Below are positions 8,068 to 60,706 of a DNA stretch of 64,000 nt, in pieces (the stretch's first letter is position 1; each line of letters begins with the position of its first letter). The position numbers and the translations under genes are program-made. This stretch comes from Alphaproteobacteria bacterium (GTDB lineage Bacteria > Pseudomonadota > Alphaproteobacteria > SHVV01). The notes beneath the pieces were generated by a model. That model was not told the origin of the DNA. It did no database searches and saw only the letters and a list, made by a program, of their open reading frames with translations. The stretch covers positions 4,250,980-4,314,979 of the forward strand of contig OZ253470.1 of the NCBI GenBank assembly GCA_965261735.1. The letters run 5' to 3'.

Positions 8068-9782
8068 ATGGCCAAAGTCTACCGCCGGACGTTCGAGTGG
8101 CGCTTCGACCAGCCGCCCGAGGCGCTGTGGCCGGCGCTCGCCGATACGGCCAAGTTCAACGAGGCCGCCGGCATCCCCAAACACGCGATCGAGGAGGTGA
8201 CGCAAGCGGACGGCTCGGTGCGCTTCTTCGCCGAGGCGCGCCGGGGACCTATTCGCATTGCCTGGGAAGAGATCCCGATGGAGTGGGTCGATGGCCAATG
8301 GTTTCGCCATCTCCGCGTGTTCTCCCGGGGCCCAATCCACAGCCTGTGCGCGACGCTGCGCCTCGAGCCCGACGGCCGCGGCGGCGCCCTCGGCCACTAC
8401 GAGATCGAGGCCACGGCTGCCAACTTGCTCGGCACCCTCGCCCTGGCTACCGTTTTCTTTTGGGTCGCACGGCGCATCTTCACCGGCCTCGCCGACACCG
8501 CCGGTGACTGGGCGGCAGGGCGCCGCGAGGCACCCTTCAAGGCGCCGCCGCGGCTCTCGGCTGCGGCCCACGCCCGGCTCGACGCGATGACGGCGCGCAT
8601 CGACCGGTCCGCCAACGGCCACGGCCTCGGTGGCCGGCTGGGCGGCTGGATCGCGGCCGCGCAGGAGGTCGATCTCATGCGCATCCGGCCGGTGGCGCTG
8701 GCCCGTCAATGGGGCGAGGACGAGCGCGACGTCATCGAGATGTGCCTGCAGGCGGTCTCGGAGGGGCTGCTCGAGTTGCGCTGGGACCTGCTGTGTCCGC
8801 GCTGTCGCGGCGCCAAGCTGGTGGTCGGTGCACTCGACCAACTGCCGCGCGGCGCACACTGCGCTTCGTGCAACATCGACTACGACCGCGAGTTCACCCG
8901 CAACGTCGAGCTGACGTTTCATCCCGCGCCCGCGGTGCGCGACGTGATCGACGGCGAATTTTGTCTCTTCGGGCCGATGTCCACGCCCCACGTCAAAGTG
9001 CAGGCGACGGTCGAGCCCGGCGAGACGCTGACGCTGCCGCAGCCGCGGTCGCGGTCGCCGCGGGGGAGGTTGCAAAAGAAGGAGAGGTCGCGCTCGTCAA
9101 CGGTGAGGACCGCCGCCGCACCTTCATTATCGAGTCGCGCGAGTGGATGCGCGACGCGCTAACCGCGCATCGCGTCACCACTATGCAGGCCTTTCGCGAC
9201 CTGTTCGCGGCCGAGGCGCTTCGGCCCGGCGACGAGGCGGCCATCTCGAACGTCACGCTCATGTTCACCGACCTCAAGGGCTCGACCGAGCTCTACGAGC
9301 GGGTCGGCGATGCCGCCGCGTTCCGCCTCGTGCGCCAGCACTTCGCCTTCTTGGCCCGGGTCGTACGGGCCAACAATGGCGCGATCGTCAAGACCCTCGG
9401 CGATGCCATCATGGCCGCGTTCGCCGATCCCGCGGATGCCGTGCGCGCGGCACAGGCGATTCAAGAAGAGGTGACGGAGTTCAACGAGGCCTCGGGTGGC
9501 GAGGACATCGTCATCAAGCTCGGCCTTCACGGCGGGCCTTGCATCGCGGTGGAGCTGAACGACCGCCTCGACTATTTCGGCTCGACCGTGAACATGGCGG
9601 CGCGTCTGCAGGGCGAAAGCGTCGGCAGTGATATCGTCCTGTCCGAGGCCATCGTCAACGACCCCGCCGTCACGCACCTCCTGAGCGCCGCCGAGCTGAC
9701 GACCGAGCGCCGGTCGATCAAGGGCTTCGACGAGCCGATCACGGTGCGCCGCCTAACCGGCAAGAGCCTCCTCGGCGCGTGA
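8068..9782 (+). CDS. Zinc-ribbon (DUF5939-like) N-domain fused to a class III adenylate/guanylate cyclase; frameshift at about 9030-9100
   Basis: ATG at 8068, with GGAAG upstream. The N-domain carries 2x CxxC (LLCPRCRGA...CASCNIDYD). Frame 1 stops at 9162, and frame 0 carries the cyclase core (VTLMFTDLKGSTELYERVGD...IVKTLGDAIMAAF...GLHGGPCIAVE) to 9782. The two frames overlap in a GC-rich GCGGTCGCGGTCGCCGCGGGGG tract. Confidence 0.65.
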
Positions 9783-10714
9783 GCGAAGGTCGCTCTCCGG
9801 GGATCGTCGTCCCGCTGGTGATGCTGCTCGCCGCCGGTCTCGCCTGGGGGGCGATCTTTACCGTCAACAGGATCGCCGCCGAAGCCGGCGTACCGCCAGT
9901 CGTTTACGCGTTCTGGTCGATCCTACTGGCCGGGCTCACCATGGCGGTCGTGTCGCTCGCGGTCGAGGGGCTGCCACGCCTAGGCCCTCGCTTCCTGCTG
10001 TTCTATTTCGTCTCCGGCGTCGCCAATTTCGGCTTCGCGATCATCCTGTTCGCCTATGTGGCCGCCGAGCTGCCCGCCGGTGTGGTGACGCTGGTGATGA
10101 TGATGACGCCGACCATGACGTATGCGTTCGCCTTCGCGCTCCGAATCGAGCGGTTTCGCGTCGCGAGTTTCCTCGGGCTGCTGTTCGGCATCGGTGGCGT
10201 GCTGATGATCGTGCTCCCGGATTTCAGCCTGCCGTCGCGCGACATGGTGGTCTGGTTCCTGCTCGCCCTGTTGGGGCCGACCTCGTTTGCCGCGGGCAAC
10301 GTCTATGTGGCGATGTACCGCCCGCCCGAAGCGCCCGGATTGATGTTGACCGCGGGCCTCTGTCTCGGCGCGTGCGTCTTCATCCTGCCGGCGCTTGTCA
10401 TCGCCGGCGGCGACCTCGACCCCTTGGCCCTACGGGCCGAGGGACTCGCCGCGATGGGTCTGGCGGCGCTGATTTACATCGTCACCCTGTCACTGTTTTT
10501 CGAGATCATCCGTCGCGTCGGGCCCCTGTTCTGGAGCCAGATCGGCTACGTCGCCGTGGCCTCCGGGATTGTGTGGGGCGCTGCCGTGTTCGGCGAGCGC
10601 CTCAGCGTCGGCATCTGGCTCGGCGCGGGCCTCATGGGCGTCGGATTGGCGCTCGTCAACCGAGGCGTGCGCGATGCCGCGCGTGAAACAGCGGGCCGCG
10701 TGGGGGCGGACTAG
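9779..10714 (+). CDS. DMT-superfamily (EamA-like) transporter
   Basis: 311 aa with 10 predicted TM helices and duplicated EamA-type halves. The start overlaps the cyclase stop by 4 nt. Confidence 0.8.
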   Translation: MSEGRSPGIVVPLVMLLAAGLAWGAIFTVNRIAAEAGVPPVVYAFWSILLAGLTMAVVSLAVEGLPRLGPRFLLFYFVSGVANFGFAIILFAYVAAELPAGVVTLVMMMTPTMTYAFAFALRIERFRVASFLGLLFGIGGVLMIVLPDFSLPSRDMVVWFLLALLGPTSFAAGNVYVAMYRPPEAPGLMLTAGLCLGACVFILPALVIAGGDLDPLALRAEGLAAMGLAALIYIVTLSLFFEIIRRVGPLFWSQIGYVAVASGIVWGAAVFGERLSVGIWLGAGLMGVGLALVNRGVRDAARETAGRVGAD

Positions 10715-10735: not shown

Positions 10736-12729
10736 CTAAAGGTAGAAGACGTCGAGCTCGCCGTGCCGCCCGCGAATGGGGTGGCGCCCGGCTTCTTTGG
10801 CGACGATCGTGGCGCCCGCGGCTTGTGCGGTGGTGCCACTCAACAGGATGGTGACGGCGGAGCCGGTGCGCCCGACCTCCTTCGCCAGCTGCTCGAGGCG
10901 GTTGGCTGTATTCACGGTGTCGCCGACGATCGTGTAGTTGATGCGGCCCGGCGCACCGATATTACCGACGATCACCTCGCCGCTGTGCAGCCCGATCCGC
11001 ACCTCGACCGGCGGCGTCCTCAATGGGGTCGCGTCCGCGTTGTCGGCCTCGACGGCGGCGCGAATGGCGAGCGCCGCCCGGCACGCGCGCGCCGTGTGGT
11101 CGGGCTGGCTCTCGGGAGCGCCCCAGAACGCCATCACGGCATCGCCGATGAACTTGTCGATGGTCCCGCTCTCGTCCTCGATGCAGGAGCTGAGGACGGC
11201 GAAATGGTGGTTGAGGAAGGCGGCGGTCTCTCCGGCCGTCATGGCCTCCGACTGACTCGTGAATCCGGCGATGTCGGTGAAAATGACGGTTGCCTCGCGG
11301 GTGACCGATTCCTGGACCGCGGATTCGCCGTAGCGCACGAGTCGGCGCACCAGGTTGCGCGGCACGTAGGTCTCGAACCAGCGCAGGCCCGTGACCATGG
11401 AGTTGAAGGCCTGCGCCGAATCGGTGATCTCGGTGAAGAGGCTGATGGGGAGCCGCGGCACACGCGAGAGCGACAGGTCGCGCACCTGTTGCGCGGCGCC
11501 GGCCAGGCGGTTGAGGGGCGTGCTCAGGTAGCGCGCGAACGCGTAGGCCGCCACAAGCGCAGCAGTACGAGCAGGCCGGCGATCGCCGCCCATCGCAGGC
11601 GTAGGAGCTCATCGGTAATTCGCGCCGCGGGGAAGTAGACGCCGGCGAGCCACGGCGTATCACCGTAGGTGGTGAGGCGGCGCGACAGCACGGCGACACT
11701 GTTGCCGCCAACGTCGATGACGTTGAAACCGGTGCTGCCGGCGAGCCGCGCGACTCGGCCGACGGCGCGCTGGGGCTCGGTCAAAGCCTGGAGCACCGGG
11801 TCCGCCACTTCAGCCAGCGGCGGCATGGGCTGGGCGGCGGTCGTCGGAAAGGGGGTGTCCACGAGGCGCGGATGCGCCAGCACGAAGTTATCGTCGTAGA
11901 GCACGAAGGCAGACCCGTCGAGCCTGCTGGCGGTCTCGGCGAGCAATGCCGACAGCCGGTCGATGCGCACCGTGGCGGCGAGCAGGCCGAGGTAGCGGCC
12001 CCCGCGGTGTACGGCGTAGCGCGCGTTGATCAGCGTTACATCCGCGGGTTCGGGTTTGATGACCTCGGCCCAATAAAGACCGGCGCGCCCGCGTCCCTCC
12101 TCGAAACCGTCGCGGATCACCGACATCTTCGAAATATCCAGGACCTGGAGGTTGACCCCATCTTCTGTGCGCAGCGCGAACACCATCTTTAGATCGTCGC
12201 GGATGAAGACGACGGAGCGGACCTGCGGCGTCGCCGCCAGCGCCCCCGAGAGATACTTGCCGAGGTCGGCGTCGACGGTATGGTCGATGGCGCCACTCTC
12301 GATCTGCCGGCCGATGTGAGAGAGCTGTTCCTCGGCCGGCCGCAAGTGCTGGGCGATTCGCCCAACGATCAACTCGATCGTGGCGGCGGACTTGTCGCGC
12401 AACAGGTCGAGCGTGTTCTCTCTGGCGCTCCACATTCTGAGCGCGAGCACAGTGACGACGGCGAGGAGAACCAGACCGCCGAAGCCGAACACGAGGCCCA
12501 TCGTAATGTTGATCTGAAAGCGCGAAGGGACCGCCGGCGCGAGGTCGGTGGGCGGCTGCGTGTCTATTGTTTCCTGCGGCATCGGCAGTGGCTTCAATGA
12601 TGTCCTTCGGTGCGGAAGACTAAGGGAAATGCCCGTGCATTGCATGGAAATCGGTGCCGCGGATTGAGTTCGTTTCCAATGGCCCCACACGTCATGCGCT
12701 GGTACAACGGCATAGCGCTGTAAGCCCAA
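10736..12729 (-). CDS. Membrane sensor adenylate/guanylate cyclase (TM, periplasmic sensor domain, TM, HAMP, class III cyclase); 1-nt frameshift at about 11555-11565
   Basis: ORF 11524..12729 encodes TM1, a roughly 280-aa periplasmic domain and the start of TM2 (WAAIAGLLVLL). ORF 10736..11593 continues in another frame with ALVAAYAFARYLSTPLNRLAGAAQQV (HAMP) and the cyclase core (ATVIFTDIAGFTS...IDKFIGDAVMAFWGAP...GLHSGEVIVGNIG). I reconstructed the join by translating the sequence by hand. Confidence 0.65.
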
Positions 12730-12742
12730 GGAGGGAGCGGTC

Positions 12743-13465
12743 GTGCACGATGTGAGCCTGCCACGGGAGATCGTCGATGCGGTCGTCGCCGCACGCGGCC
12801 GGCGCTATGTTTACGAGGCTATAGACCCGCGCACCACGGCCTTGGTCGTCGTCGACATGCAGAATATGTTCGTCGCGGACGAGGCCCCCTTCGAGGTGCC
12901 GAGCGCGCGTGACATCGTCCCCAACATCAACCGCCTGGCCGCTGCCGTGCGCGGCGCCGGCGGTCAGGTCGTGTGGATTCAGGCGACGCAAGGGGCCGAA
13001 GGAAGTGGGCAGTTCTTCGCGCTGTATTTCGACAACTTCGTCCCTTCGGAGCGCCGTCGCGTCTGCCTCGATGCCGCGCGGGAAGGCAGCCCCCATCACG
13101 CGCTGTACGCGGGTCTCGACGTGGCGCCGGGCGACCGCCGGATCAAGAAGTCTCGCTTCAGCGCCTTTATTCAGGGCGCTTCGGACATCGAAAGGCACCT
13201 GCGCGAGGGCGGCATCGACACGCTTCTCATCGCCGGCACGGCGACCAACGTGTGTTGCGAATCGACGGCGCGCGACGCCATGATGTTGGGCTTCAAGATC
13301 ACCATGTTGTCGGACGCCACGGCCTCGCACAGCGATGCTGAGCACTTGGCCGGCCTGCTGACCATGTTTCGCTACTTCGGTGACGTGCGCACGACGGCGG
13401 AGGCAATCGCCCTGCTCGAAGCAGGTGAGGCAAAAGCGCCGGTGCTTGCGGCGGCTACGGCCTAG
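12743..13465 (+). CDS. Isochorismatase-family (cysteine) hydrolase
   Basis: ALVVVDMQNMF ... IAGTATNVCCESTARDA: isochorismatase-fold motifs including the catalytic Cys. Confidence 0.75.
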   Translation: MHDVSLPREIVDAVVAARGRRYVYEAIDPRTTALVVVDMQNMFVADEAPFEVPSARDIVPNINRLAAAVRGAGGQVVWIQATQGAEGSGQFFALYFDNFVPSERRRVCLDAAREGSPHHALYAGLDVAPGDRRIKKSRFSAFIQGASDIERHLREGGIDTLLIAGTATNVCCESTARDAMMLGFKITMLSDATASHSDAEHLAGLLTMFRYFGDVRTTAEAIALLEAGEAKAPVLAAATA

Positions 13466-32043: not shown

Positions 32044-33446
32044 GGGATGAAATAGGTCTGCCCAAAGCTGGACGAGAACATCATCAGCATCCCGAAGCTC
32101 AGAAAGCCGCGGTTGCGTAGAATGAAATGGAAATAGGTCACAGGAAGGCGTTGTCATGTATGGACGCCCCCGGTGTTGCAAGGGGAAAACTGATTTGAAT
32201 CGGCGGTAGAGCTTGCAGTCATGTATCCGGCCTTTTCGCTGCGGTACGCTGACCGCTGGCCCTGATGGAATCCGAAAGATCGACGCCCAGTCAGACTAAC
32301 GAGCTTGATGCTCGGACAATGCCTCGGGTTTGGCCGATCTCGGGTGGAACCCTGTTTCGCCATCAAATCGTCGTCACCCTCGCAATTTGATCCCGGTTTG
32401 CCAGCTGGCTATGCCGGCGTCGGTCGGTAGATACGCTCGTACCTGAGCAGTGCCCAGGCGACACGGGCTGCCTTATTGGCCATGGCGACCAGCACCACGT
32501 TTGTCGGCCGCCGCGCCAGGAGCCGGTCGGTCCAGCCAGGCCCCGTGCCCGGCTTGGCGCGGCGCCAGCGCAGCACGCTTCGCGCACCATGCACGAGCAA
32601 GCGCCTGATATAGCCATCCCCGCGCTTCGAGATCCGCCCCAGCCTGTCCTTGCCGCCACTCGAGTGTTGTCGGGGCACGAGACCGAGCCAGGCCGAGAGC
32701 TGCCGGCCCGAGCGAAACTGCGCGCCATCTCCGATCGTCGCGACCAGCGCCGTCGCGGTGATGACACCGACGCCGGGGATCGTCGCAAGCCGGCGGCTCG
32801 CCTCGTTGGAGCGGTGCCATGCCATAAGTGTCGCCTCCAGCTGCTTGATCCGGGCCTGAGCAGAGCGGAGCTGCTCAACCAGAGAGCCAAGCGCCTCGCG
32901 TGCCAGAGGCGGCAGTCGCACATCGCCGGGATCTTCGATAATGGCAACCAGTTCCTCCACCTTCGACGCCCCCTGAGCGACGATCAGTCCGAACTCCGCA
33001 CAGTGGCCGCGCAGCGCATTGATCACCATCGTGCGTTGACGGACCAACAGCTCTCGGGCCCGGTGCAGCATCAGAACCGACTGCTGCTCGGCGCTTTTCG
33101 CCGGTGCAAAGCGCATCGTCGGACGCGTCACTGCCTCACAGATCGCTTCCGCATCCGCTGCGTCGTTCTTATTCGTTTTGACGAAGGGACGAACGTATTG
33201 AGGCGGAATCAGCTGAACTTTGTGCCCGTGTGCTTGCAGTTCCCGAGCCCAATAGTGCGCAGAGGCACAGGCTTCCATACCGACAAGACAGGATGGCAAT
33301 CCGGCGAAGAACGCCAGCACCTTCTGTTGGTAGCGACCGTAAATTTCCCATTTGTAACGACCCAAAATTTCTCACTTTGGGCTTGTCGCTGAAGGCGTCC
33401 CGGGCCGCTCTGTTGGCTTTGCCAACAGAGCGGGATCGGTGCGCGG

Positions 33447-34469
33447 ATGTACAAATGGGAGACCAGGATGTTGTTGAAGCACTATCTGGACCGGGGTGTC
33501 TCGAAGGCGGAGCTGTCGAGGCGGTTCGGGGTGAACCGTCGGACGATCCACAATTGGGTCGATACCGGCCAACTGGACCGGGATCTGGCGGCCGGTGCGC
33601 GAGGGTATTCGCCCCGTCCGCCGGTGGCCCACAAGCTGGACCCCTACAAGGCGATCATCGACGCCCGTCTTGAGGCGTTCCCGAAGCTGTCGGCGAAGCG
33701 GCTTTTCGATGAGGTCCGCGCTGCGGACTACCCGGGCTGCTACTCTCGCGTGAACGACTACGTGCGGGCGACGCGACCGCGCGAACCGGTTGAATCGCTG
33801 GTCCGGTTCGAGACGCCGGCGGGGCGTCAGGGCCAGGTGGACTTCGGTACGTTCACGCTGCCCTGGGGCCGGCGCCATGCCCTGGTGATCGTCCTCGGCT
33901 TCACCCGGCTGCTGTGGCTGCACTTCTATACTCGGCAGACCATGCCGGTCCTGATGGAAGGTCTGGAGAGCGCCTTCGACCGGTTCGGCGGGGTTCCGGA
34001 GGAGCTGCTGTTCGACCAGATGCGCGCCGTGGTGCTGTCCGACGACCGCGGGGCCGGCGGCGGCCTGGTGCTGAACGAGGAGTTTCTGCGGTTCGCCGCG
34101 CACTGGGGGTTCATGCCGCGCTCGTGCCGACCCTATCGGGCCCAGACCAAGGGCAAAGTGGAGCGCCCGATCCGCTACATCCGCGAGAGCTTCTTCTACG
34201 GCCGCTCGTTTGCGAATGACAACGATCTCAACGAGCAGGCCGTGCGCTGGCTGGAGGGCACAGCCAACGTCCGCCGGCATGCCACGACCGGGGAGCGTCC
34301 TGTCGACCGCTTCGAGCGCGACGAGCGAGCGGTGCTTCTCCCCTTGGCGAACCATCCCTATCGACGTCTCGGCGTCCGGCATGCTCCGGAGCCCGCGCCG
34401 CGGCGACTGCCGGCAACCGTGAAGGTCGAGCAGCGACCGCTTAGTGTCTATGCGGAGGCGCTGCAATGA
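33447..34469 (+). CDS. istA: IS21-family transposase IstA
   Basis: 340 aa with an N-terminal HTH (LSRRFGVNRRTIHNW) and a DDE integrase core (...RQGQVDFGTF...VLMEGLESAF...). Confidence 0.85.
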   Translation: MYKWETRMLLKHYLDRGVSKAELSRRFGVNRRTIHNWVDTGQLDRDLAAGARGYSPRPPVAHKLDPYKAIIDARLEAFPKLSAKRLFDEVRAADYPGCYSRVNDYVRATRPREPVESLVRFETPAGRQGQVDFGTFTLPWGRRHALVIVLGFTRLLWLHFYTRQTMPVLMEGLESAFDRFGGVPEELLFDQMRAVVLSDDRGAGGGLVLNEEFLRFAAHWGFMPRSCRPYRAQTKGKVERPIRYIRESFFYGRSFANDNDLNEQAVRWLEGTANVRRHATTGERPVDRFERDERAVLLPLANHPYRRLGVRHAPEPAPRRLPATVKVEQRPLSVYAEALQ

Positions 34470-35263
34470 ACGCTCCGGCGCCGGCCCGGCGCGACCGGCT
34501 GCGGGCAATGCTGGCGGACCTCAAGATGCCGGGCGCGCTGGAGGCCGTCGACGGCATCCTCTCGGACGCCGACGGCGGCACGATCTCGGCGGCCGAGGCC
34601 ATCGAGCAGTTGCTGAACGCCCAGATCGTGCTGCGCAACAACCGCCGTCTCCAGACCGCCATGCGCTCTTCGCGGCTGCCGGCTGTGAAGACGCTCGATC
34701 AGTTCGACTTCGCCTTCCAGCCCAGCATCAAGCGCGAGCAGATCGAGAGCTTGCACGAGCTCGGCTTCCTGGACCGCGGCGAGAACGTGATCCTGCTCGG
34801 CCCACCAGGCGTCGGGAAAACGCACTTGGCGATCAGCCTCGCGATCGCGGCGGCCGAGGCCGGCCGGCGCGTCTACTACGGCACGCTCGCGGCGCTGATC
34901 GAGTCCCTCACCGAGGCCAAGGCCGCCGGCAATCTGACCCGGCGGCTGCGCGTGCTCACCCATCCGGCCCTGCTGGTGGTCGACGAGATCGGCTACCTGC
35001 CGGTCAACCAGGACGGCGCCGTGCTCTTCTTCCAGCTCATCAACGCCCGGCACGAGAGGGCGTCGACTGTGCTGACGTCGAACAAGGGTTTCGAGGACTG
35101 GGGTGGCGTGCTCGGCGACGAGGTCATGGCGGCGGCTCTCATCGACCGCCTTGTGCACCACTGCCACATCGTCAACATCCGGGGCAACAGCTACCGGATG
35201 AAGGAGCATCAGAACCTGCTGCAGTCCGGCTCGGATCGACGCAGGAAAAGAGCCGCCGCGTGA
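34466..35263 (+). CDS. istB: IS21-family helper ATPase IstB
   Basis: 265 aa with Walker A GPPGVGKTHLA and Walker B LLVVDEIGY. ATGA overlap with istA. Confidence 0.85.
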   Translation: MNAPAPARRDRLRAMLADLKMPGALEAVDGILSDADGGTISAAEAIEQLLNAQIVLRNNRRLQTAMRSSRLPAVKTLDQFDFAFQPSIKREQIESLHELGFLDRGENVILLGPPGVGKTHLAISLAIAAAEAGRRVYYGTLAALIESLTEAKAAGNLTRRLRVLTHPALLVVDEIGYLPVNQDGAVLFFQLINARHERASTVLTSNKGFEDWGGVLGDEVMAAALIDRLVHHCHIVNIRGNSYRMKEHQNLLQSGSDRRRKRAAA

Positions 35264-35819
35264 TCGCCGGCTCAAACGGAGACAGGAGCGGTGACACCCG
35301 CCCGCTGTGGATAACCGGGTTGTCGCCGCCAGACTCTTGGCGGTCGCTGCGCCAACCCGGTTACCTACAGCTCGACCAAGTCCGACACCCCAAACACCGC
35401 GTCTGGGGGTACGACCGAACGCTCAAAGTGAGAAATATTTCGATCGACAAAAGTGGGAAATTTTCAGTCGCAATTGACACCTTCCCGCGGCGCAGCTTCC
35501 GCCGTAGTACCGGTCGTCCCTCACCATCAGCACCGTGAACCTGGAACACCGTCTTTGCCAGATCAAACCCAATTGTCGTAATATCCATCGTGGACGCTCC
35601 CTCTGTCTGGGTTGTTCAACACACTCCAGTATGGCTCATCGTGAAGCCGTAGGGGGCTTCCATACCATCAGACGAACTGGATAGGATCTGAAGAACCTGC
35701 AAACCAGGCCTCTCAGGCTGCAAGTTGACGCCACTCGGCCAAGGCGGCGGCTCGGGTTTGTTTGAAAATATCGCGGCGGTTGAGATGGCGTTCGTGGCTG
35801 AAGTGGTTATGGATTGAGG

Positions 35820-40975: not shown

Positions 40976-41089
40976 TTGATGCGCGCCGAGCGCATACAGG
41001 CGGCGGCGATGGCGCCGCTCGGTGACTCGAGGGCGAGCGCCCGGAGCCGGGGACCACGAAGCTCGCTCTTCTCGTCGCCCATCTCAGTG

Positions 41090-41253
41090 CCCCGGGCGGC
41101 GCGACCATCGCCGAACTCTGTAAGGCAACGGGCTGGCAGCCCCATTCGGTTCGAGGCGGGCTCGCCGGTGCGCTGCGACGCAAGGGCCACGTCATCCGGT
41201 CCGAGAAAGAAGGGGGCCAGCGGCGCTACCGCATCGAGGAACCGGTGACATGA
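41090..41253 (+). pseudogene. DUF3489-family gene, C-terminal fragment
   Basis: ...GATIAELCKATGWQPHSVRGGLAGALRRKGHVIRSEKEGGQRRYRIEEPVT* is the conserved DUF3489 C-terminal module; no N-terminus. Its stop overlaps the DUF2924 start (ATGA). Confidence 0.4.
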
Positions 41254-41663
41254 CCGGCGAGGCGCCGCTTGCGGACGAGATCGAGGCGCTCACGCCCCTT
41301 GGTCTCGAAGGGCTTCGAGAGGTTTGGCGCAACCGCTACGGTGTCCCGCCGAAGCTGCGCTCGGCTGCGCTGTTGCGTCATTGTCTGGCCTGGCGGCTGC
41401 AGGCAGAGGCTCTCGGCGGTCTCGATCGTGACACACGGCGCAAGCTCAAGCGCCGCCAGCGGGTCCAGGCAGAAGGTCTTGAGCTCGGGATCGGGACCAC
41501 GCTGCAGCGCGAATGGCAAGGGCAGATAGTCCAGGTCACGGTCGAAGAAGAGGGGTTTCGCCACGGGGGTCAACTCTTCAAGAGCCTCTCCGCGGCCGCG
41601 ACCGCGATCGCGGGCACGCGTTGGAATGGCCCGCGCTTCTTCGGCCTCCGATCCGCCAAATGA
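41250..41663 (+). CDS. DUF2924-domain protein
   Basis: 137 aa (LEGLREVWRNRYGVPPKLRSAALLRHCLAWRLQAEALGGLD...). This family typically sits just upstream of large serine recombinases in alphaproteobacterial integrative elements. Its stop overlaps the recombinase ATG. Confidence 0.6.
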   Translation: MTGEAPLADEIEALTPLGLEGLREVWRNRYGVPPKLRSAALLRHCLAWRLQAEALGGLDRDTRRKLKRRQRVQAEGLELGIGTTLQREWQGQIVQVTVEEEGFRHGGQLFKSLSAAATAIAGTRWNGPRFFGLRSAK

Positions 41664-42358
41664 GCCAACCCCGTCTCCACTGTGCCCTCTATACGAGGAA
41701 GAGTAGCGAGGAAGGCCTCGAGCAGGCGTTCAACTCCCTCGATGCGCAGCGCGAAGCCTGCGCGGCGTATGTGAAGAGCCAGGCCGGCGAAGGTTGGAGA
41801 GCAGTTCGGGCCCGCTACGACGATGGCGGCTTCTCCGGCGCGTCCATGGAGCGCCCGGCGCTCAAGCGGCTTCTCTGCGACATCGTTGTTGTCCGCGCCG
41901 AGCTCCACGATCAGTCGCTGCACTGCTTGCTGCCGATCGACCGGATCGTCGCGATGCGCCAGCGCCTCGAGCCGCACGAACGCCTCGAGCCGGATCCGGC
42001 CGATGCGCGTCTCGCCAGACTGCATCTGCCCCTTGTCCGGCGTCGTGGCGAGACCTGGGTTCTCAAGGGCCCAAGTGCGGGACACATGCCGGACCCTGTT
42101 CTGGTCAAGGCGCTCCGCTCCGCACACGCCATGCTGCACCACGATGATGGCGGATTGCCCGTGCTCGTCACAGCGCCGGATACGCCCTATCGCCGCCAGC
42201 TCGTTCGCCTGGCCTTTCTGGCGCCGGAGATCCAAAGAGCGATTGTTGAAGGTCGCCAATCCGCAGGCCTGACACTGGCACAGCTCCTCAAGGGCCCGAT
42301 GCCGCTCGACTGGCCGCAACAGGCCGTCCGAATCGGCATTGCGGCATCGCTGGAATAG
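41660..42358 (+). pseudogene. Large serine recombinase, internally deleted or degenerate (232 aa versus the usual ~550 aa)
   Basis: It retains the resolvase catalytic N-terminus (CALYTRKSSEEGLEQAFNSLDAQREACAAYV...YDDGGFSGASMERPALKRLLCDI) and the conserved C-terminal tail (...RLAFLAPEIQRAIVEGRQSAGLTLAQLLKGPMPLDWPQQ). The recombinase/zinc-ribbon middle is missing. Confidence 0.55.
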
Positions 42359-42458
42359 GGACCAGCACCCACATCCCGCTCACTCGACTACGGCAAGACG
42401 GGCCGGATTATTTCCTGTTCCCTTCATTTGCTTCCCTGATATCGACTGCCCTTCCCCC

Positions 42459-42625
42459 TGTTTTGCAGAAAAGACCCCCTGTTTTGCAGAAAAGAACCCC
42501 TGTTCTGCAGAAAAGAACCTCTGTTCTGCAGAAAAGAACCCCTGTTCTGCAGAAAAGAACCCCTGTTCTGCAGAAAAGAACCCCTGTTCTGCAGAAAAGA
42601 CCCCCTGTTCTGCAGAAAAACAGGA
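42459..42625. repeat. Tandem array, ~8 x 21-bp unit TGTTCTGCAGAAAAGAACCCC; each unit contains the 10-bp perfect palindrome TTCTGCAGAA
   Basis: Head-to-tail units at 42459, 42480, 42501, 42522, 42543, 42564, 42585 and a partial eighth at 42606. Unit variants are TTTTGCAG versus TTCTGCAG and GACCCC versus GAACCC. There are no intervening spacers. All six reading frames are open through it. Confidence 0.85.
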
Positions 42626-42639
42626 AAGTTCAGAAGTCA

Positions 42640-43130
42640 TTGATAAAAAAAGATAATTTCTTCATTTTGGTCGGCAGTTCGCTACAATCTCCCTGTTTTG
42701 AGGCCGTAATCGCAAAGATTCCCTGTTGCCACCAAACTCACCCTTGCATCGCGCTCGCGGAGACCGCACGCCGCGAAGCCCGGCAATGGCCGGAAATGCT
42801 CCCGGGTTCAGGAGCTCAGAATTCCGTTTGACCGCGAAACGGGCCCTGTTTCCCGCGGCTTGGCCGAGCTATGCGATGAAGAGACTGCTTCGCCGGGGTG
42901 GCTGGCTGTGCAGGCAGTCTCCCGCGAACTCGTCTCTGAGGCCAATTCCCTGTTTAACAGGGAAAATACAGGGAAATTTTCTCTTTTGCAGGGATTCAGA
43001 AGCTTTCCTGTGTTCAAAACATGGCAGAAACGCTAGTGTTTTCGGTCCAATTCCCTAAACCATGTAACAGGGAATTTATTTGAACGAACAGGGATTTTGT
43101 TCGGGAGAACAGGGAATTCTACTGGTCCAC
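42640..43130. promoter_or_regulatory. AT-richer non-coding region seeded with AACAGGGA(A/T) motifs in both orientations; putative iteron/centromere/recombination site
   Basis: Motifs at about 42691 (rc), 42721 (rc), 42838 (rc), the palindrome TTCCCTGTTTAACAGGGAA at 42949, ACAGGGAAA at 42972, and three direct repeats AACAGGGAWTT at 43067, 43088 and 43109, exactly 21 bp apart. The repeat units at 42459-42625 each carry the same core (CCCCTGTT is the reverse complement of AACAGGGG). Confidence 0.55.
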
Positions 43131-43139
43131 GGCGGCAGC

Positions 43140-43862
43140 CGAAACATGATCGCGCCCGGCGCCGGCGCCGGGTCGATGTGGTTCATGAGTTGGCGGGAGC
43201 CTGAGGCCGCTTGGTTGTTGCACGGCATCTTCGACGTGCAGCCCTGTTCGAAGGACTTCGAGGCGAAGTTCGCCGACGTGGCGACCGCGTACGGGTCGCC
43301 GCTCCCACCACGGGCCCGGCAGGAGATCCTGCGGATTGCGGAACGGCTGGCACTCGTGGAAGAGCAGATCGCCCGGGTCGAGGCCGAACGTAATGCGTTC
43401 GTGCTGTCTGGAGAGGCAACCTCGATGGTGGATGCGCCCGAGGGAAGCCAAGCGCGGGCGGCGGCGAAGATCGCGGCGTTGACCCGGCTGAAGGCGATCG
43501 GTCCGAACGACGCAACCATCCTGACGCACGAGGTCTTCTACCGCGGGTTCCGCAATCGTCGCGAACTCGCGAGCTGGGTCGGTGTGACGCCAGCCCCTTG
43601 GGCGAGCGGAGACACGTACCGCGACCAGGGGATCAGCCGCGACGGTCCGGCATGGATCCGGGCACAGCTCATCCAAATGGCGTGGCGTTGGCTGCGCTAT
43701 CAGCCTGATAGCGCGCTCAGCAAGTGGTTCAACGAGCGCACTGCGGGGTCCCGCGGGCGGATCCGCCGGGTGATGATCGTGGCGCTCGCCCGCAAGCTGC
43801 TCATCGCGCTCTGGCGGTTCTCCGAGACCGGTCTCGTGCCGACTAGCGCCACGCTCGTCTGA
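43140..43862 (+). mobile_element. IS110-family transposase gene lacking the N-terminal DEDD domain (fragment)
   Basis: The C-terminal half ...ILTHEVFYRGFRNRRELASWVGVTPAPWASGDTYRDQGISRDGPAWIRAQLIQMAWRW...MIVALARKLLIALWRF matches the IS110 Transposase_20 region. There is no catalytic N-terminus. Confidence 0.55.
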
Positions 43863-44180: not shown

Positions 44181-44215
44181 TTGACTGCGTCTGCCCTCAT
44201 AAGAGCGAGAGTTTG
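44181..44215 (+). promoter_or_regulatory. Possible sigma-70-like promoter (TTGACT, 17-19 bp, TAAGAG) upstream of the ParB-like gene
   Basis: CTTGACTGCGTCTGCCCTCATAAGAGCG lies about 80 bp upstream of the ATG at 44294. Sequence-only guess. Confidence 0.25.
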
Positions 44216-44293
44216 AGCCAAAGGCGGGCGAGGGCGGATGCCGAAGAGGGTGCCCCCGCCCGGTTCCGCATTCACGCAATCCCGGAGACTGAA

Positions 44294-45340
44294 ATGCACG
44301 ACCCCGAACGCGATATCTCTGACATCCCGCTGTCCCAACTCGAACTCTCGCCCGACAATGTGCGCAAGACGCCGGCGGATGATTCGGCCTTCACCGAGCT
44401 CAAGGCCTCGATCGCCGCCCACGGGCTGCTCGAGAACCTGATTGCCCGTTCCATGGGACCCGGCGCGGATGGCCCCGGGCGCTACGCGGTGATCGCCGGC
44501 GGACGGCGGCTTGCCGCGATGCAGGCGCTGGCCGCCGAGGGCACGCTGGACGAGGACCACCCCGTGCCCTGCCGCATGATCGGAAGCATCGTGGCGGCCG
44601 AAGAGGTTTCGCTGGCCGAGAACAGTGTCCGCGCCGCAATGCACACGGCCGATCAGGTCGAAGCCTTCCGCCGCCTGGCCGATGCGGGTAGCACGGCGGG
44701 CGCCATCGCGGCGCGCTTCGGGGTCTCGGAGCGCACCGTGGAGAAGCGGCTGCGGCTCGGCAACGCCGCACCGGTACTGCTCGAGGCCTACCGCGCGGGC
44801 GACATCGATCTGGAAACATTGATGGCCTTTGCCGTCACCACGGATCAGGCTCGCCAAAGCACGGTCTGGGCGGCGGTGAGCCAGCAGGGCTACCGGCCCG
44901 GCGCCTGGCAGATCAAGCGCCTGCTGACCGAGGACCGGGTTCCGGCTACGTCCGCCATCGCGCGTTTCGTCGGCATCGAGGCTTACGAGGCGGCGGGCGG
45001 CCAGATCGACCGCGACCTGTTCGCCGAGGAGGACGAGCGGGGGATCTGGTTCGACGATCCCGATCTGTTGAACAAGCTCGCCATGGACAACCTACAGGCC
45101 GTGGCGAGGGAACTGGAGACGCGCGGGAAATGGGCCGAGGCGCGGCTCGACGTGGACTGGAACGCTACCGCGAGCTTTGGGCGGGTCGGCCGAGCCGACG
45201 GACGAGGAGAAGGCCGAGATCGAACGCTTGAGGACCCGCAACGACGAACTCGCCAATATGGAGGACGACGGCTGGACCGAAGAATTGGTCGAGGAAGCCG
45301 ATGCCAACGAGACGCGCCTGGACGAGATCGAGGTTCATCG
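44294..45340 (+). pseudogene. ParB-like nuclease-domain protein (ICE/plasmid-type), disrupted by two frameshifts
   Basis: N-terminal ParB/Srx domain (LSQLELSPDNVRKTP...AHGLLENLIARS...YAVIAGGRRLAAMQAL), then EAYRAGDIDLETLMAF... The frame then shifts at about 45180 to the coiled-coil segment EPTDEEKAEIERLRTRNDELANMEDDGWTEELVEEADANETRLDEIE, and again at about 45340. Confidence 0.6.
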
Positions 45341-45777
45341 ACAGCGATCTCTATCTGCCCTCGATGCACTCGCAGGGCATCGATGCCATCGCCATCATCA
45401 TCGATACCTCCGCCTCGCTGCCGGGCGAAACGCTGGCCCTGTTCTGGGCCGAGGTCCGCGAGATCGCCGCCGAACTGCAACCGAACAGCATCTATGTCCT
45501 TCAGGTCGACGCGGTGCTGCAGGACGCGGCCCAATATCCCGCCGGGGAACTACCGGACAGCATCACGATCAAGGGACGCGGCGGGACCGATTTCCGGCCA
45601 GGCTTCGCATGGCTCCATGAGCATGGGGTGCATCCAAGCTGCTGCCTCTACCTGACCGACATGGAATGTGACAGCTACCCCGAGGCCGCGCCCCCATATC
45701 CTGTGGCTTGGGTCGTTTGGGGCGGCGATCGATACCGCCAGCCCTGGGGCGAGCGCATCGACATCGGACCAGCCTGA
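45340..45777 (+). pseudogene. VWA-like (DUF2201-type) domain fragment fused downstream of the ParB-like gene
   Basis: IIIDTSASLPGE has the MIDAS DxSxS motif; ...GRGGTDFRPGF...LYLTDMECD follows. This is only the C-terminal VWA module of the usual metallopeptidase-VWA protein. Confidence 0.5.
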
Positions 45778-60510: not shown

Positions 60511-60593
60511 CGCGTATCCCTCCTCAGTCGGCGGAATACACCTTAAAAACCTGTCCGATTTTCCGGGGCCACCTCATTGTGCGGATACGCCAA

Positions 60594-60653
60594 TCGTTGT
60601 TAACGGCGGAGGAATAATGATGGAATCGTTGTTAACGGCGGAGGAATAATGAT
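60594..60653 (+). repeat. Tandem 30-bp duplication of the IS21-type-2 left terminus (CGTTGTTAACGGCGGAGGAATAATGATGGA x2)
   Basis: Two exact head-to-tail copies, then about 50 bp of unmatched sequence and the IS903-like IR at 60707. Confidence 0.7.
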
Positions 60654-60706
60654 GGAGTGGACGCCTCCTCCCGACGGCATCGCAGTGTGCCAAGGTGGTG
60701 GTGTGA

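Follow-up and report, generated by a model that had tools for sequence, protein, structure and literature searches.

Attachment sites of the lambda type (attP) carry arm-type sites for Int, sites for Xis, and bends made by IHF. Among the small serine recombinases, sites II and III of res (Tn3/gamma-delta) and the Fis-bound enhancer of Hin and Gin lie near the crossover and shape the synaptic complex. The large serine recombinases (LSRs) are prized in genome engineering for sites that are short and cofactor-free, and the prevailing view is that only protein-protein contacts with a directionality factor decide the direction of their reaction. The LSR integrases that have been characterised need sites of <50 bp, typically without accessory sites (PMC1470463; bioRxiv 10.1101/2024.06.11.598349). 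Here we describe a locus in a 64,000-nucleotide stretch of DNA from an Alphaproteobacteria bacterium (GenBank assembly GCA_965261735.1, contig OZ253470.1, positions 4,250,980 to 4,314,979), which is called the window below. Positions 41025-43120 of the window are the remnant of an integrative element, in which a DUF3489-DUF2924-LSR module is followed by an attachment-site region. An initial annotation had flagged 690 bp here (42440-43130) as a candidate iteron origin, centromere or recombination site of a decayed integrative element. The junctions with tRNA genes, the repeat at the core and a break in homology divide these 690 bp into a P arm, a core and a P' arm of ~215 bp, and the region is very probably the attachment-site region of a decayed LSR element. 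Of the three identities offered, the recombination site is supported, the origin is quite unlikely, and the centromere is not supported.

The comparison was made with relatives of the window. Homologues of the recombinase C-terminus led to loci L002-L007, which match the window from 41886 or 41940 to 42980 at 75-96% identity. A search with DUF2924 gave 160 further loci, and 157 loci were fetched and surveyed. Ten close relatives with an intact 529-residue LSR were fetched later (L170-L180); their cassettes are 84-97% identical to that of the window or to one another. Of the 157 loci, 28 contain a tRNA gene at a distance of 156-759 bp past the LSR stop codon. With two exceptions the gene is on the minus strand, and in most cases it is a tRNA-Ser gene at ~374-406 bp. 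In five of the ten later loci, the tRNA is found 416-425 bp past the LSR stop. The arm is joined to tRNA-Gln(CTG) in L170, L171 and L002, to tRNA-Ser(TGA) in L178 and L179, and to tRNA-Ser(GGA) in L180, in each case at an encoded CCA end. The same arm thus meets three different tRNAs at one fixed nucleotide, in cassettes that are ~89% identical (L170/L171, L178/L179, L180). A junction at one fixed nucleotide is what marks integration at an LSR attachment site, and it is this joining of one arm to different tRNA genes that supports the recombination site of the initial annotation. As read from these junctions, elements of the family have the 3' CCA end of a tRNA gene as their insertion point. 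Because three tRNAs are targeted, always at the CCA end, the recombinase appears to read what tRNA 3' ends have in common and not one particular gene.

The core of the site in the window (42881-42921) is an imperfect inverted repeat, with GAGACTGC at 42881-42888 and GCAGTCTC at 42914-42921, and it sits between two fields of a short motif described below; in part it is similar to the 3' end of a tRNA. At the point equivalent to the junctions, the window reads GGTGGC/TGGCTG at 42903, where TGGCTG matches the 3' CCA end of tRNA-Gln(CTG), and we infer that the crossover point is near this position. A degenerate copy of a tRNA 3' end follows the inverted repeat, and homology to L006 and to the tRNA-Gln locus of L002 stops at 42908. 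The repeat is clearer in more distant relatives: in L167 the core is a 46-bp imperfect inverted repeat, CGTTCGAC-tgg-GACTGCGT-GGTGGCGG-ACGCAGTC-tat-GTCGAACG. Both cores therefore have the length of ~40-50 bp and the partial dyad symmetry that are typical of LSR attachment sites. The site does not look like a minimal one, since conserved phased motif clusters are present at fixed distances on its arms.

The cassette to the left of the site was identified by Pfam and by its 84-97% DNA identity to loci with intact genes. The DUF3489 gene (41025-41253, plus strand) is a remnant, which has lost its 5' end at a junction with a truncated PhyH gene and retains the C-terminal domain. The 89-95% DNA identity to L005 and L007 begins at 41025, and residues 31-98 of DUF3489 from L005 match 41047-41250 at 91% identity (tblastn). 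The DUF2924 gene (41250-41663, plus strand) is intact; it encodes 137 amino acids (Pfam E = 1.5e-37) and is a candidate DNA-binding partner of the recombinase. The LSR gene (41660-42358, plus strand) is a pseudogene, in which the catalytic N-terminus (41660-41885) is joined to the C-terminal 157 codons (41886-42358), with a Pfam Resolvase match on residues 58-124 of the reading frame only. An internal deletion of ~900 bp has occurred, the window skipping from 8869 to 9768 of L005 and from 8665 to 9557 of L007. The system in the window is dead. Further evidence of decay in the window clade comes from L007, in which a ~220-bp tandem duplication lies within the 3' part of the LSR gene (9557-10427) and an IS1595 is inserted in the P arm at the equivalent of window 42649-42656. 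A sharp left boundary 115 bp upstream of DUF3489 was considered and rejected, being debris of insertion sequences (IS) and miniature inverted-repeat transposable elements that is common to one lineage.

In the relatives, DUF3489 and DUF2924 are directly upstream of the LSR in nearly every locus, and the LSR comes directly after DUF2924 in essentially all of the 157 fetched loci. Intact LSRs have 517-529 residues and contain both the Resolvase and the Recombinase domain, so that the gene adjacent to the site is of the kind expected beside an LSR attachment site, the window copy being its pseudogene. The catalytic domain matches TP901-1 integrase (E = 3.7e-25). Gene order is of two types. In type A, the genes for a ParB_N-methylase, DUF5681, the large terminase, DUF3489, DUF2924 and the LSR are co-directional, and the motif field is on the far side of the core. 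In type B, to which the window clade belongs, the methylase, DUF5681 and terminase genes are divergent from DUF3489-DUF2924-LSR, and the stretch from the LSR stop to the core contains the field, which faces a tRNA gene. The large terminase of the relatives belongs to phrog_38 (E = 1.5e-111) and is encoded together with DUF5681 and the LSR cassette. DUF2924 comprises at least 1490 protein clusters; in isolated phages, only distant relatives of it were found (AcaML1, WO).

The two arms carry repeated copies of a motif of ~11 nt, whose consensus from 129 clustered sites is KAACAGGGAAWTT, and which is unlike the core sequence. Its exact form AACAGGGA occurs seven times in the 64-kb window, always inside 42690-43115, against 1.07 expected, and none of 100 shuffles reached seven. 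The initial annotation had counted at least nine further sites outside the tandem array. Seven of these are exact, and nine are reached only with the near matches ATACAGGGAA (42966-42975), GCAGGGAT (42988-42995) and GGCCCTGTTT (~42845). The AT-richer character it had given to this tract is borne out, with a G+C content of 0.42-0.57 compared to 0.64-0.70 in the flanks; the spacers between the site clusters are the AT-richer parts, at 0.42-0.52.

The P arm runs from the LSR stop to the crossover (42359-42902). It is 545 bp long in the window, compared to 416-425 bp in most relatives and 440 bp in L004, and its site offsets from the crossover match those of the relatives. In the window, CCTGTW is found at -299, -320, -341, -362, -211, -181 and -58, AACAGG at -284, and a second motif, RGAGAC, at -144 and -23. 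Relatives with an intact LSR have four distinct CCCTGTT sites at -364, -343, -322 and -300, an inverted AACAGG at -285, and more sites at -211, -181 and -58; L170 and L171 are without the -343 site under that pattern. The proximal pair, two exact copies of AACAGGGA on the minus strand (42690-42697 and 42720-42727), is invariant in alignments A1 and A3, and all clade members have it at -211 and -181.

The P' arm mirrors the order of the P arm: the core is followed by ~25 bp, by a palindrome and, after 11 bp, a third copy, by another ~80 bp, and then by a weak inverted site and three direct copies. Its proximal cluster (42946-42975) is made up of the palindrome TTCCCTGTTTAACAGGGAA at 42946-42964, which the initial annotation had also seen, and the third copy ACAGGGAA. 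Its distances to the core and to the distal cluster are the same in L004, L007, L037, L055, L148, L167 and L172, and in L041, L056 and L063 only a degenerate left half of it is present. The distal cluster (43049-43120, plus strand) starts with a weak inverted site, AATTCCCTA, at 43049-43057, and continues with AACAGGGA at 43066, 43087 and 43108. The three phased direct repeats reported earlier are thus indeed exactly 21 bp apart. This arrangement (- + + +), with a spacing of 21-22 bp, recurs in L004, L007, L037, L041, L053, L055, L056, L063, L148, L162, L167 and L172. The conserved region ends at ~43120.

In the loci that carry the motif, the general layout of an arm is a proximal cluster (the palindrome and a copy 10-11 bp away), a spacer of ~80-110 bp, and a distal cluster of one inverted and three to four direct sites 21-22 bp apart. 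The motif on both arms always reads away from the core. Neighbours in the same orientation are 20-22 bp apart in 57 of 73 cases and 10-12 bp apart in 14. The offsets from the tRNA end in many distant loci agree within 1-2 bp: direct sites at -369, -347 and -326, an inverted site at -310, then -194 and -184, and an inverted site at -176. The motif and its layout next to the core are retained even where the identity of the LSR is as low as 47-65%. When ten tRNA-joined P arms are aligned (mean identity 53%), conservation is concentrated in islands at the motif copies, at CAGAGAC and at the junction, and in arm alignments with a mean identity of 53-61% the motif columns are invariant and the spacers variable. 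The field stays beside the core in both type A and type B, whichever way the terminase module faces. A dispersed REP-like element, which the initial annotation had named as an outcome that would count against it, is not what was found: in loci L008-L167, ACAGGGA/TCCCTGT has a density of 1.52 per kb in the 700 bp past the LSR stop, and 0.04 per kb elsewhere.

The most conspicuous feature of the region is a tandem array of period 21 (42455-42619, plus strand), for which Tandem Repeats Finder gives 7.9 copies, 96% matches and a score of 295. A listing of the units gives eight copies of CCCCTGTTCTGCAGAAAAGAA, so that the array was described correctly. Each unit was said to carry a perfect palindrome, TTCTGCAGAA, as well as CCCCTGTT. 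This is slightly overstated, because units 1 and 2 have TTTTGCAGAA in place of TTCTGCAGAA and one unit has CCTCTGTT in place of CCCCTGTT; the exact palindrome is carried by six of the eight units, and has six matches where 0.06 are expected. The copy number varies, from eight units in the window to three in L002 and L004 and one in L003, L005 and L006, within flanks that are 80-96% identical, which is the behaviour of a variable-number tandem repeat. Intact relatives have no tandem array, and instead have four different TCCCTGTT sites spaced 21-22 bp. The inner units of the window array, at -362, -341, -320 and -299, occupy the ancestral positions, and the first ancestral site has been displaced to -489. 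The copies that carry an amplified array have broken recombinase genes. The eight-unit array is a recent, lineage-specific amplification in tandem of the distal sites of the P arm, within an element copy that already had a broken recombinase gene, and its expansion was probably neutral.

The palindrome was initially taken to be part of the recognition unit, and this was not confirmed. TTCTGCAGAA is missing in L003, L005, L006, L170 and L176-L180, and the spacer in low-copy relatives is TTCCGAAAAA or TTCTCTAAAT, leaving CCCTGTT as the only invariant part. By this comparison the palindrome is incidental. The idea that the array might be a coding repeat was rejected as well: every frame of L003, L005 and L006 has between one and six stop codons, and no reading frame is conserved across the array, so that a conserved protein-coding repeat, the other outcome set against the initial annotation, was not found in these relatives. 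Searches with the region itself gave little. Rfam has no family at the gathering threshold, with only chance-level matches in the region; blastn of 760 bp against plasmids found no match; an exact 20-mer scan of genome contigs gave a single chance match, in a Bacteroidia metagenome-assembled genome; and in a 16-kb megablast only an IS630 copy matched.

Two further elements of the P arm are conserved in position. The AT-rich spacer between the distal and the proximal cluster contains a CATTGAT island (42638-42644), which resembles an IHF site. Alignment A1 shows no change in the columns AAGnCATTGA within a spacer that otherwise varies, and the reverse strand of L003, on reading the sequence, fits the IHF consensus WATCAANNNNTTR. 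The window copy is one base off the consensus, and for this reason no exact IHF match was found in the window. The motif RGAGAC is present as GGAGAC at 42759-42764 (plus strand), 144 bp before the crossover. It is at -144 in 11 of 11 clade members measured; of 22 distant loci next to a tRNA gene, 16 have it between -141 and -146. CAGAGAC has a density of 0.95 per kb past the LSR stop compared to 0.03 per kb elsewhere. In both gene-order types, RGAGAC (usually CAGAGAC) is also found at -23 (window 42880-42885) and sometimes at -95 or -108 (P arms of L010-L180). The copy at -23 is the outer part of the left half-site of the core, and the upstream copies may therefore be extra binding sites for the recombinase.

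What the phased motifs do is a separate matter. In our judgement, the proposal that they are putative accessory, arm-type binding sites of the LSR attachment site is evenly balanced. A small DNA-binding protein of the cassette would sit on the phased sites, on one helix face per arm. A bend in the AT-rich spacer, at the CATTGA island, would then fold the arm onto the recombinase-bound core, and the folded complex would aid or restrict synapsis and so set directionality, that is, integration versus excision. Such a site would be the counterpart, for a serine enzyme, of the lambda arms with their Int, Xis and IHF. The core-binding surface of the LSR itself is unlikely to read the motif, since the core half-sites do not contain it. 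The first candidate binder would be DUF2924 and the second DUF3489, and a conserved host protein may also serve. The initial annotation had seen no protein in the window that matched the site, and in this it overlooked the intact DUF2924 gene, which belongs to the same cassette and whose product has predicted folds similar to DNA-binding domains. The predicted model of DUF2924 is similar to SAP-type domains and to MPND, and weakly so to CcrM. The RAMA domain, which is predicted to bind DNA, has been reported to match DUF2924 in part (PMC11342252), and the MPND match fits this report. DUF3489 has sub-threshold winged-helix matches to MarR_2 and PaaX (E = 0.03). Sequence searches of the Protein Data Bank with DUF2924 and DUF3489 gave no match.

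A more specific version of this proposal can be formulated, which we put forward tentatively and with some doubt. In a large natural family of LSRs, the LSR, the SAP/RAMA-like DUF2924 and the winged-helix-like DUF3489 would form a three-protein machine on a nucleoprotein site of 400-650 bp in place of a bare 50-bp core, in which the phased AACAGGGAA arms and RGAGAC fold onto the core and gate integration into, and excision from, tRNA CCA ends, as an equivalent of the lambda intasome.

Several observations weigh against these proposals. Arm sites contradict the established pattern for LSRs, since the characterised sites are short and lack accessory sites. The motif occurs in a subset of the family only, with at least three exact sites past the LSR in 14 of 78 loci. 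In L028, an element beside tRNA-Lys, there is no motif field near either end, and plasmid relatives in Shinella and Bradyrhizobium are also without the motif. The fixed spacing could be due in part to common descent. Both arms are contiguous, as in an attP, within chromosomal IS-rich contigs (the window, L003, L004, L005, L007 and L172, and also L173), and no clean far-end junction (attL: host flank, core, P' arm) was found in any fetched locus. Different DNA starts ~10-25 bp past the third phased site: in the window it is part of an IS110, in L004 part of an IS1595, and in L007 and L172 it is sequence of another kind. The persistence of attP-like copies has possible explanations in tandem elements, in recombination between two resident elements, or in a hotspot of IS insertion. 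Lastly, two repeat clusters around an AT-rich spacer are also what a replication origin would present.

In that reading, the phased AACAGGGAA copies would be iterons for an initiator of the element, and the AT-rich spacer (G+C 0.42-0.52) an unwinding region, used after excision as in phage-inducible chromosomal islands. With iteron origins such as pSC101, RK2 oriV and those of staphylococcal pathogenicity islands the region has in common three or more direct repeats 21-22 bp apart, in two clusters around an AT-rich spacer, with an inverted copy beside the direct repeats. In addition, the ~7-kb gene sets described below have no recognisable replication gene, so that an unassigned protein could be the initiator. 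However, here no initiator gene accompanies the repeats. The conserved gene order of the relatives includes no Rep, primase or helicase gene, no Rep-like family is present in the window flanks, and the region has no DnaA box within one mismatch. The distance to the crossover is fixed to 1-2 bp, and the field moves with the recombination core and not with any gene, neither of which is needed by an origin. We therefore regard an origin as quite unlikely, and of the iteron origin proposed initially only the repeat phasing survives. The same tie to the core weakens two other readings, since the field stays with the core and not with the terminase genes or a promoter. The motifs could be operators, bound by a regulator of the element that acts on a promoter in the P' arm (for the ParB-methylase/terminase/recombinase operon) and prevents transcripts from reading through where the recombinase gene ends. 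Palindromes and direct repeats are typical of operators, and in type A the phased sites are 130-200 bp upstream of the first gene of a one-orientation operon. In type B, however, the field follows the LSR stop and faces the tRNA gene, with no element gene downstream, and the true promoter region of DUF3489-DUF2924-LSR has no motif copy. A promoter scan of 42200-43400 gave one weak site, not above chance, and a terminator scan was likewise at chance level. An operator field is unlikely.

Terminase recognition sites often consist of several phased repeats, for example the R sites of lambda cosB. The relatives encode DUF5681, a candidate small terminase, and a clear large terminase together with the LSR cassette, and the type A field is upstream of the terminase operon. 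The repeats could thus be a packaging site (pac or cosB), bound by DUF5681, which would direct the large terminase to it. The location in type B does not agree with this, as the field is past the LSR, on the opposite side of the cassette from the ParB-methylase, DUF5681 and TerL genes. Moreover, the motif hardly varies among relatives whose proteins are very divergent, and its position is tied to the crossover, which makes packaging very unlikely. A partition centromere, bound by the ParB-like protein encoded at 44213-45655 (480 amino acids, with a ParB_N domain and a helix-turn-helix motif), was suggested by the arrays lying near this gene. The initial annotation placed the array between a truncated serine recombinase and the ParB-like gene; the recombinase is indeed at the left, but the ParB-like gene starts 1.1 kb right of the field, behind an IS110-family transposase fragment that begins at ~43120, and is unrelated to the element. 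It has no detectable similarity to the ParB_N-methylase of the element, and is missing from the gene order of the relatives, so that it shows no synteny with the array. There is no ParA gene, and the array travels with the LSR cassette. The ParB/KfrA-type centromere is close to refuted. Finally, the end of the conserved block just after the third phased site, with different IS fragments beyond it in the window and L004, suggested a multi-site transposon end of the Tn7 or Mu type. This was set aside because the conserved gene order contains no transposase genes and the other arm joins tRNAs at a fixed nucleotide.

Some further features of the window and its relatives were observed in passing. 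The window is dense in IS (IS630, IS1595 twice, IS21, IS110, IS5-like and IS3). At 32412-33323 and 35478-35588 there is one IS110-family gene, split by ~2.1 kb with an IS21-type pair (IstB at 34466-35263). Its protein is 98-100% identical to one in L006, and for this reason the source of L006 (ENA assembly ERZ28763718) is probably a close relative of the window organism. A perfect 32-bp tandem duplication, two copies of AATCGTTGTTAACGGCGGAGGAATAATGATGG, is found at 60592-60656, and two copies of a 24-bp repeat at 33330-33379. In L122, a period-66 array of 12.6 copies (12285-13112), made of a ~36-nt repeat and variable spacers of ~30 nt, starts 270 bp past the LSR stop and from its layout looks like a CRISPR array.

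Many IMG/VR contigs of 4-8 kb, including L037 (1-7516), L053, L055, L056 and L063, contain a compact ~7-kb gene set in one orientation: ParB_N-DNA methylase, DUF5681, large terminase, DUF3489, DUF2924 and LSR. Genes for a portal, a capsid or replication are missing from the set, which may represent either a satellite-like element or a prophage end that recurs. In L037 (7050-7170), a plus-strand tRNA 3' fragment (...GTTCGAGTCCTCCCAGCCCCACCA) is found ~90 bp past the LSR stop, followed by an inverted copy of the core-proximal arm, which from its arrangement looks like the remnant of a second att junction, head-to-head. After the inverted arm copy come REP-like hairpins, ATGTCCGCTTT...AAAGCGGACAT.

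Among the published texts that searches found to mention DUF2924, DUF3489 or DUF5681, none deals with these sites, and the family-level architecture of the site appears to be undescribed. For annotation, an orphan repeat is explained as the footprint of a dead element. Elements of this family can be searched for by their signature, which is a DUF3489-DUF2924-LSR cassette, phased AACAGGGAA sites, RGAGAC at -144 and -23, and then a tRNA gene. If the architecture is functional, it would be a new variant of LSR attachment sites. It would also mean that the LSR class has a second control logic, based on DNA architecture, with rigid arm sites and two constant small partner genes, and the family would be a source of integrases that target the nearly universal tRNA 3' end.

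The sites of Bxb1, phiC31, TP901-1 and phiRv1 share with the present one an enzyme with Resolvase and Recombinase domains, a site beside the integrase gene, and an imperfect inverted-repeat core of ~40-46 bp. They differ in that here an arm of 215-420 bp carries conserved, phased motifs that are unlike the core and keep their distances, insertion is at the CCA end of tRNA genes, and DUF3489 and DUF2924 precede the integrase. The small serine recombinases with accessory sites have a catalytic domain of the same family, and there too additional DNA sites lie near the crossover. The res accessory sites are, however, site-I-like sites for a recombinase dimer, whereas AACAGGGAA differs from the core half-sites; of the two motifs, only RGAGAC at -144 and -23 might have the role of a res accessory site. 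The comparison with lambda-type attP is limited by the enzyme, which is a serine and not a tyrosine recombinase and, for that reason, has no arm-binding N-terminal domain. In the DNA the likeness is closer: repeats unlike the core are present on both arms, in phase with the helix and each at a set distance from the crossover, the spacer has a possible bend site, and the target is the 3' end of a tRNA gene.

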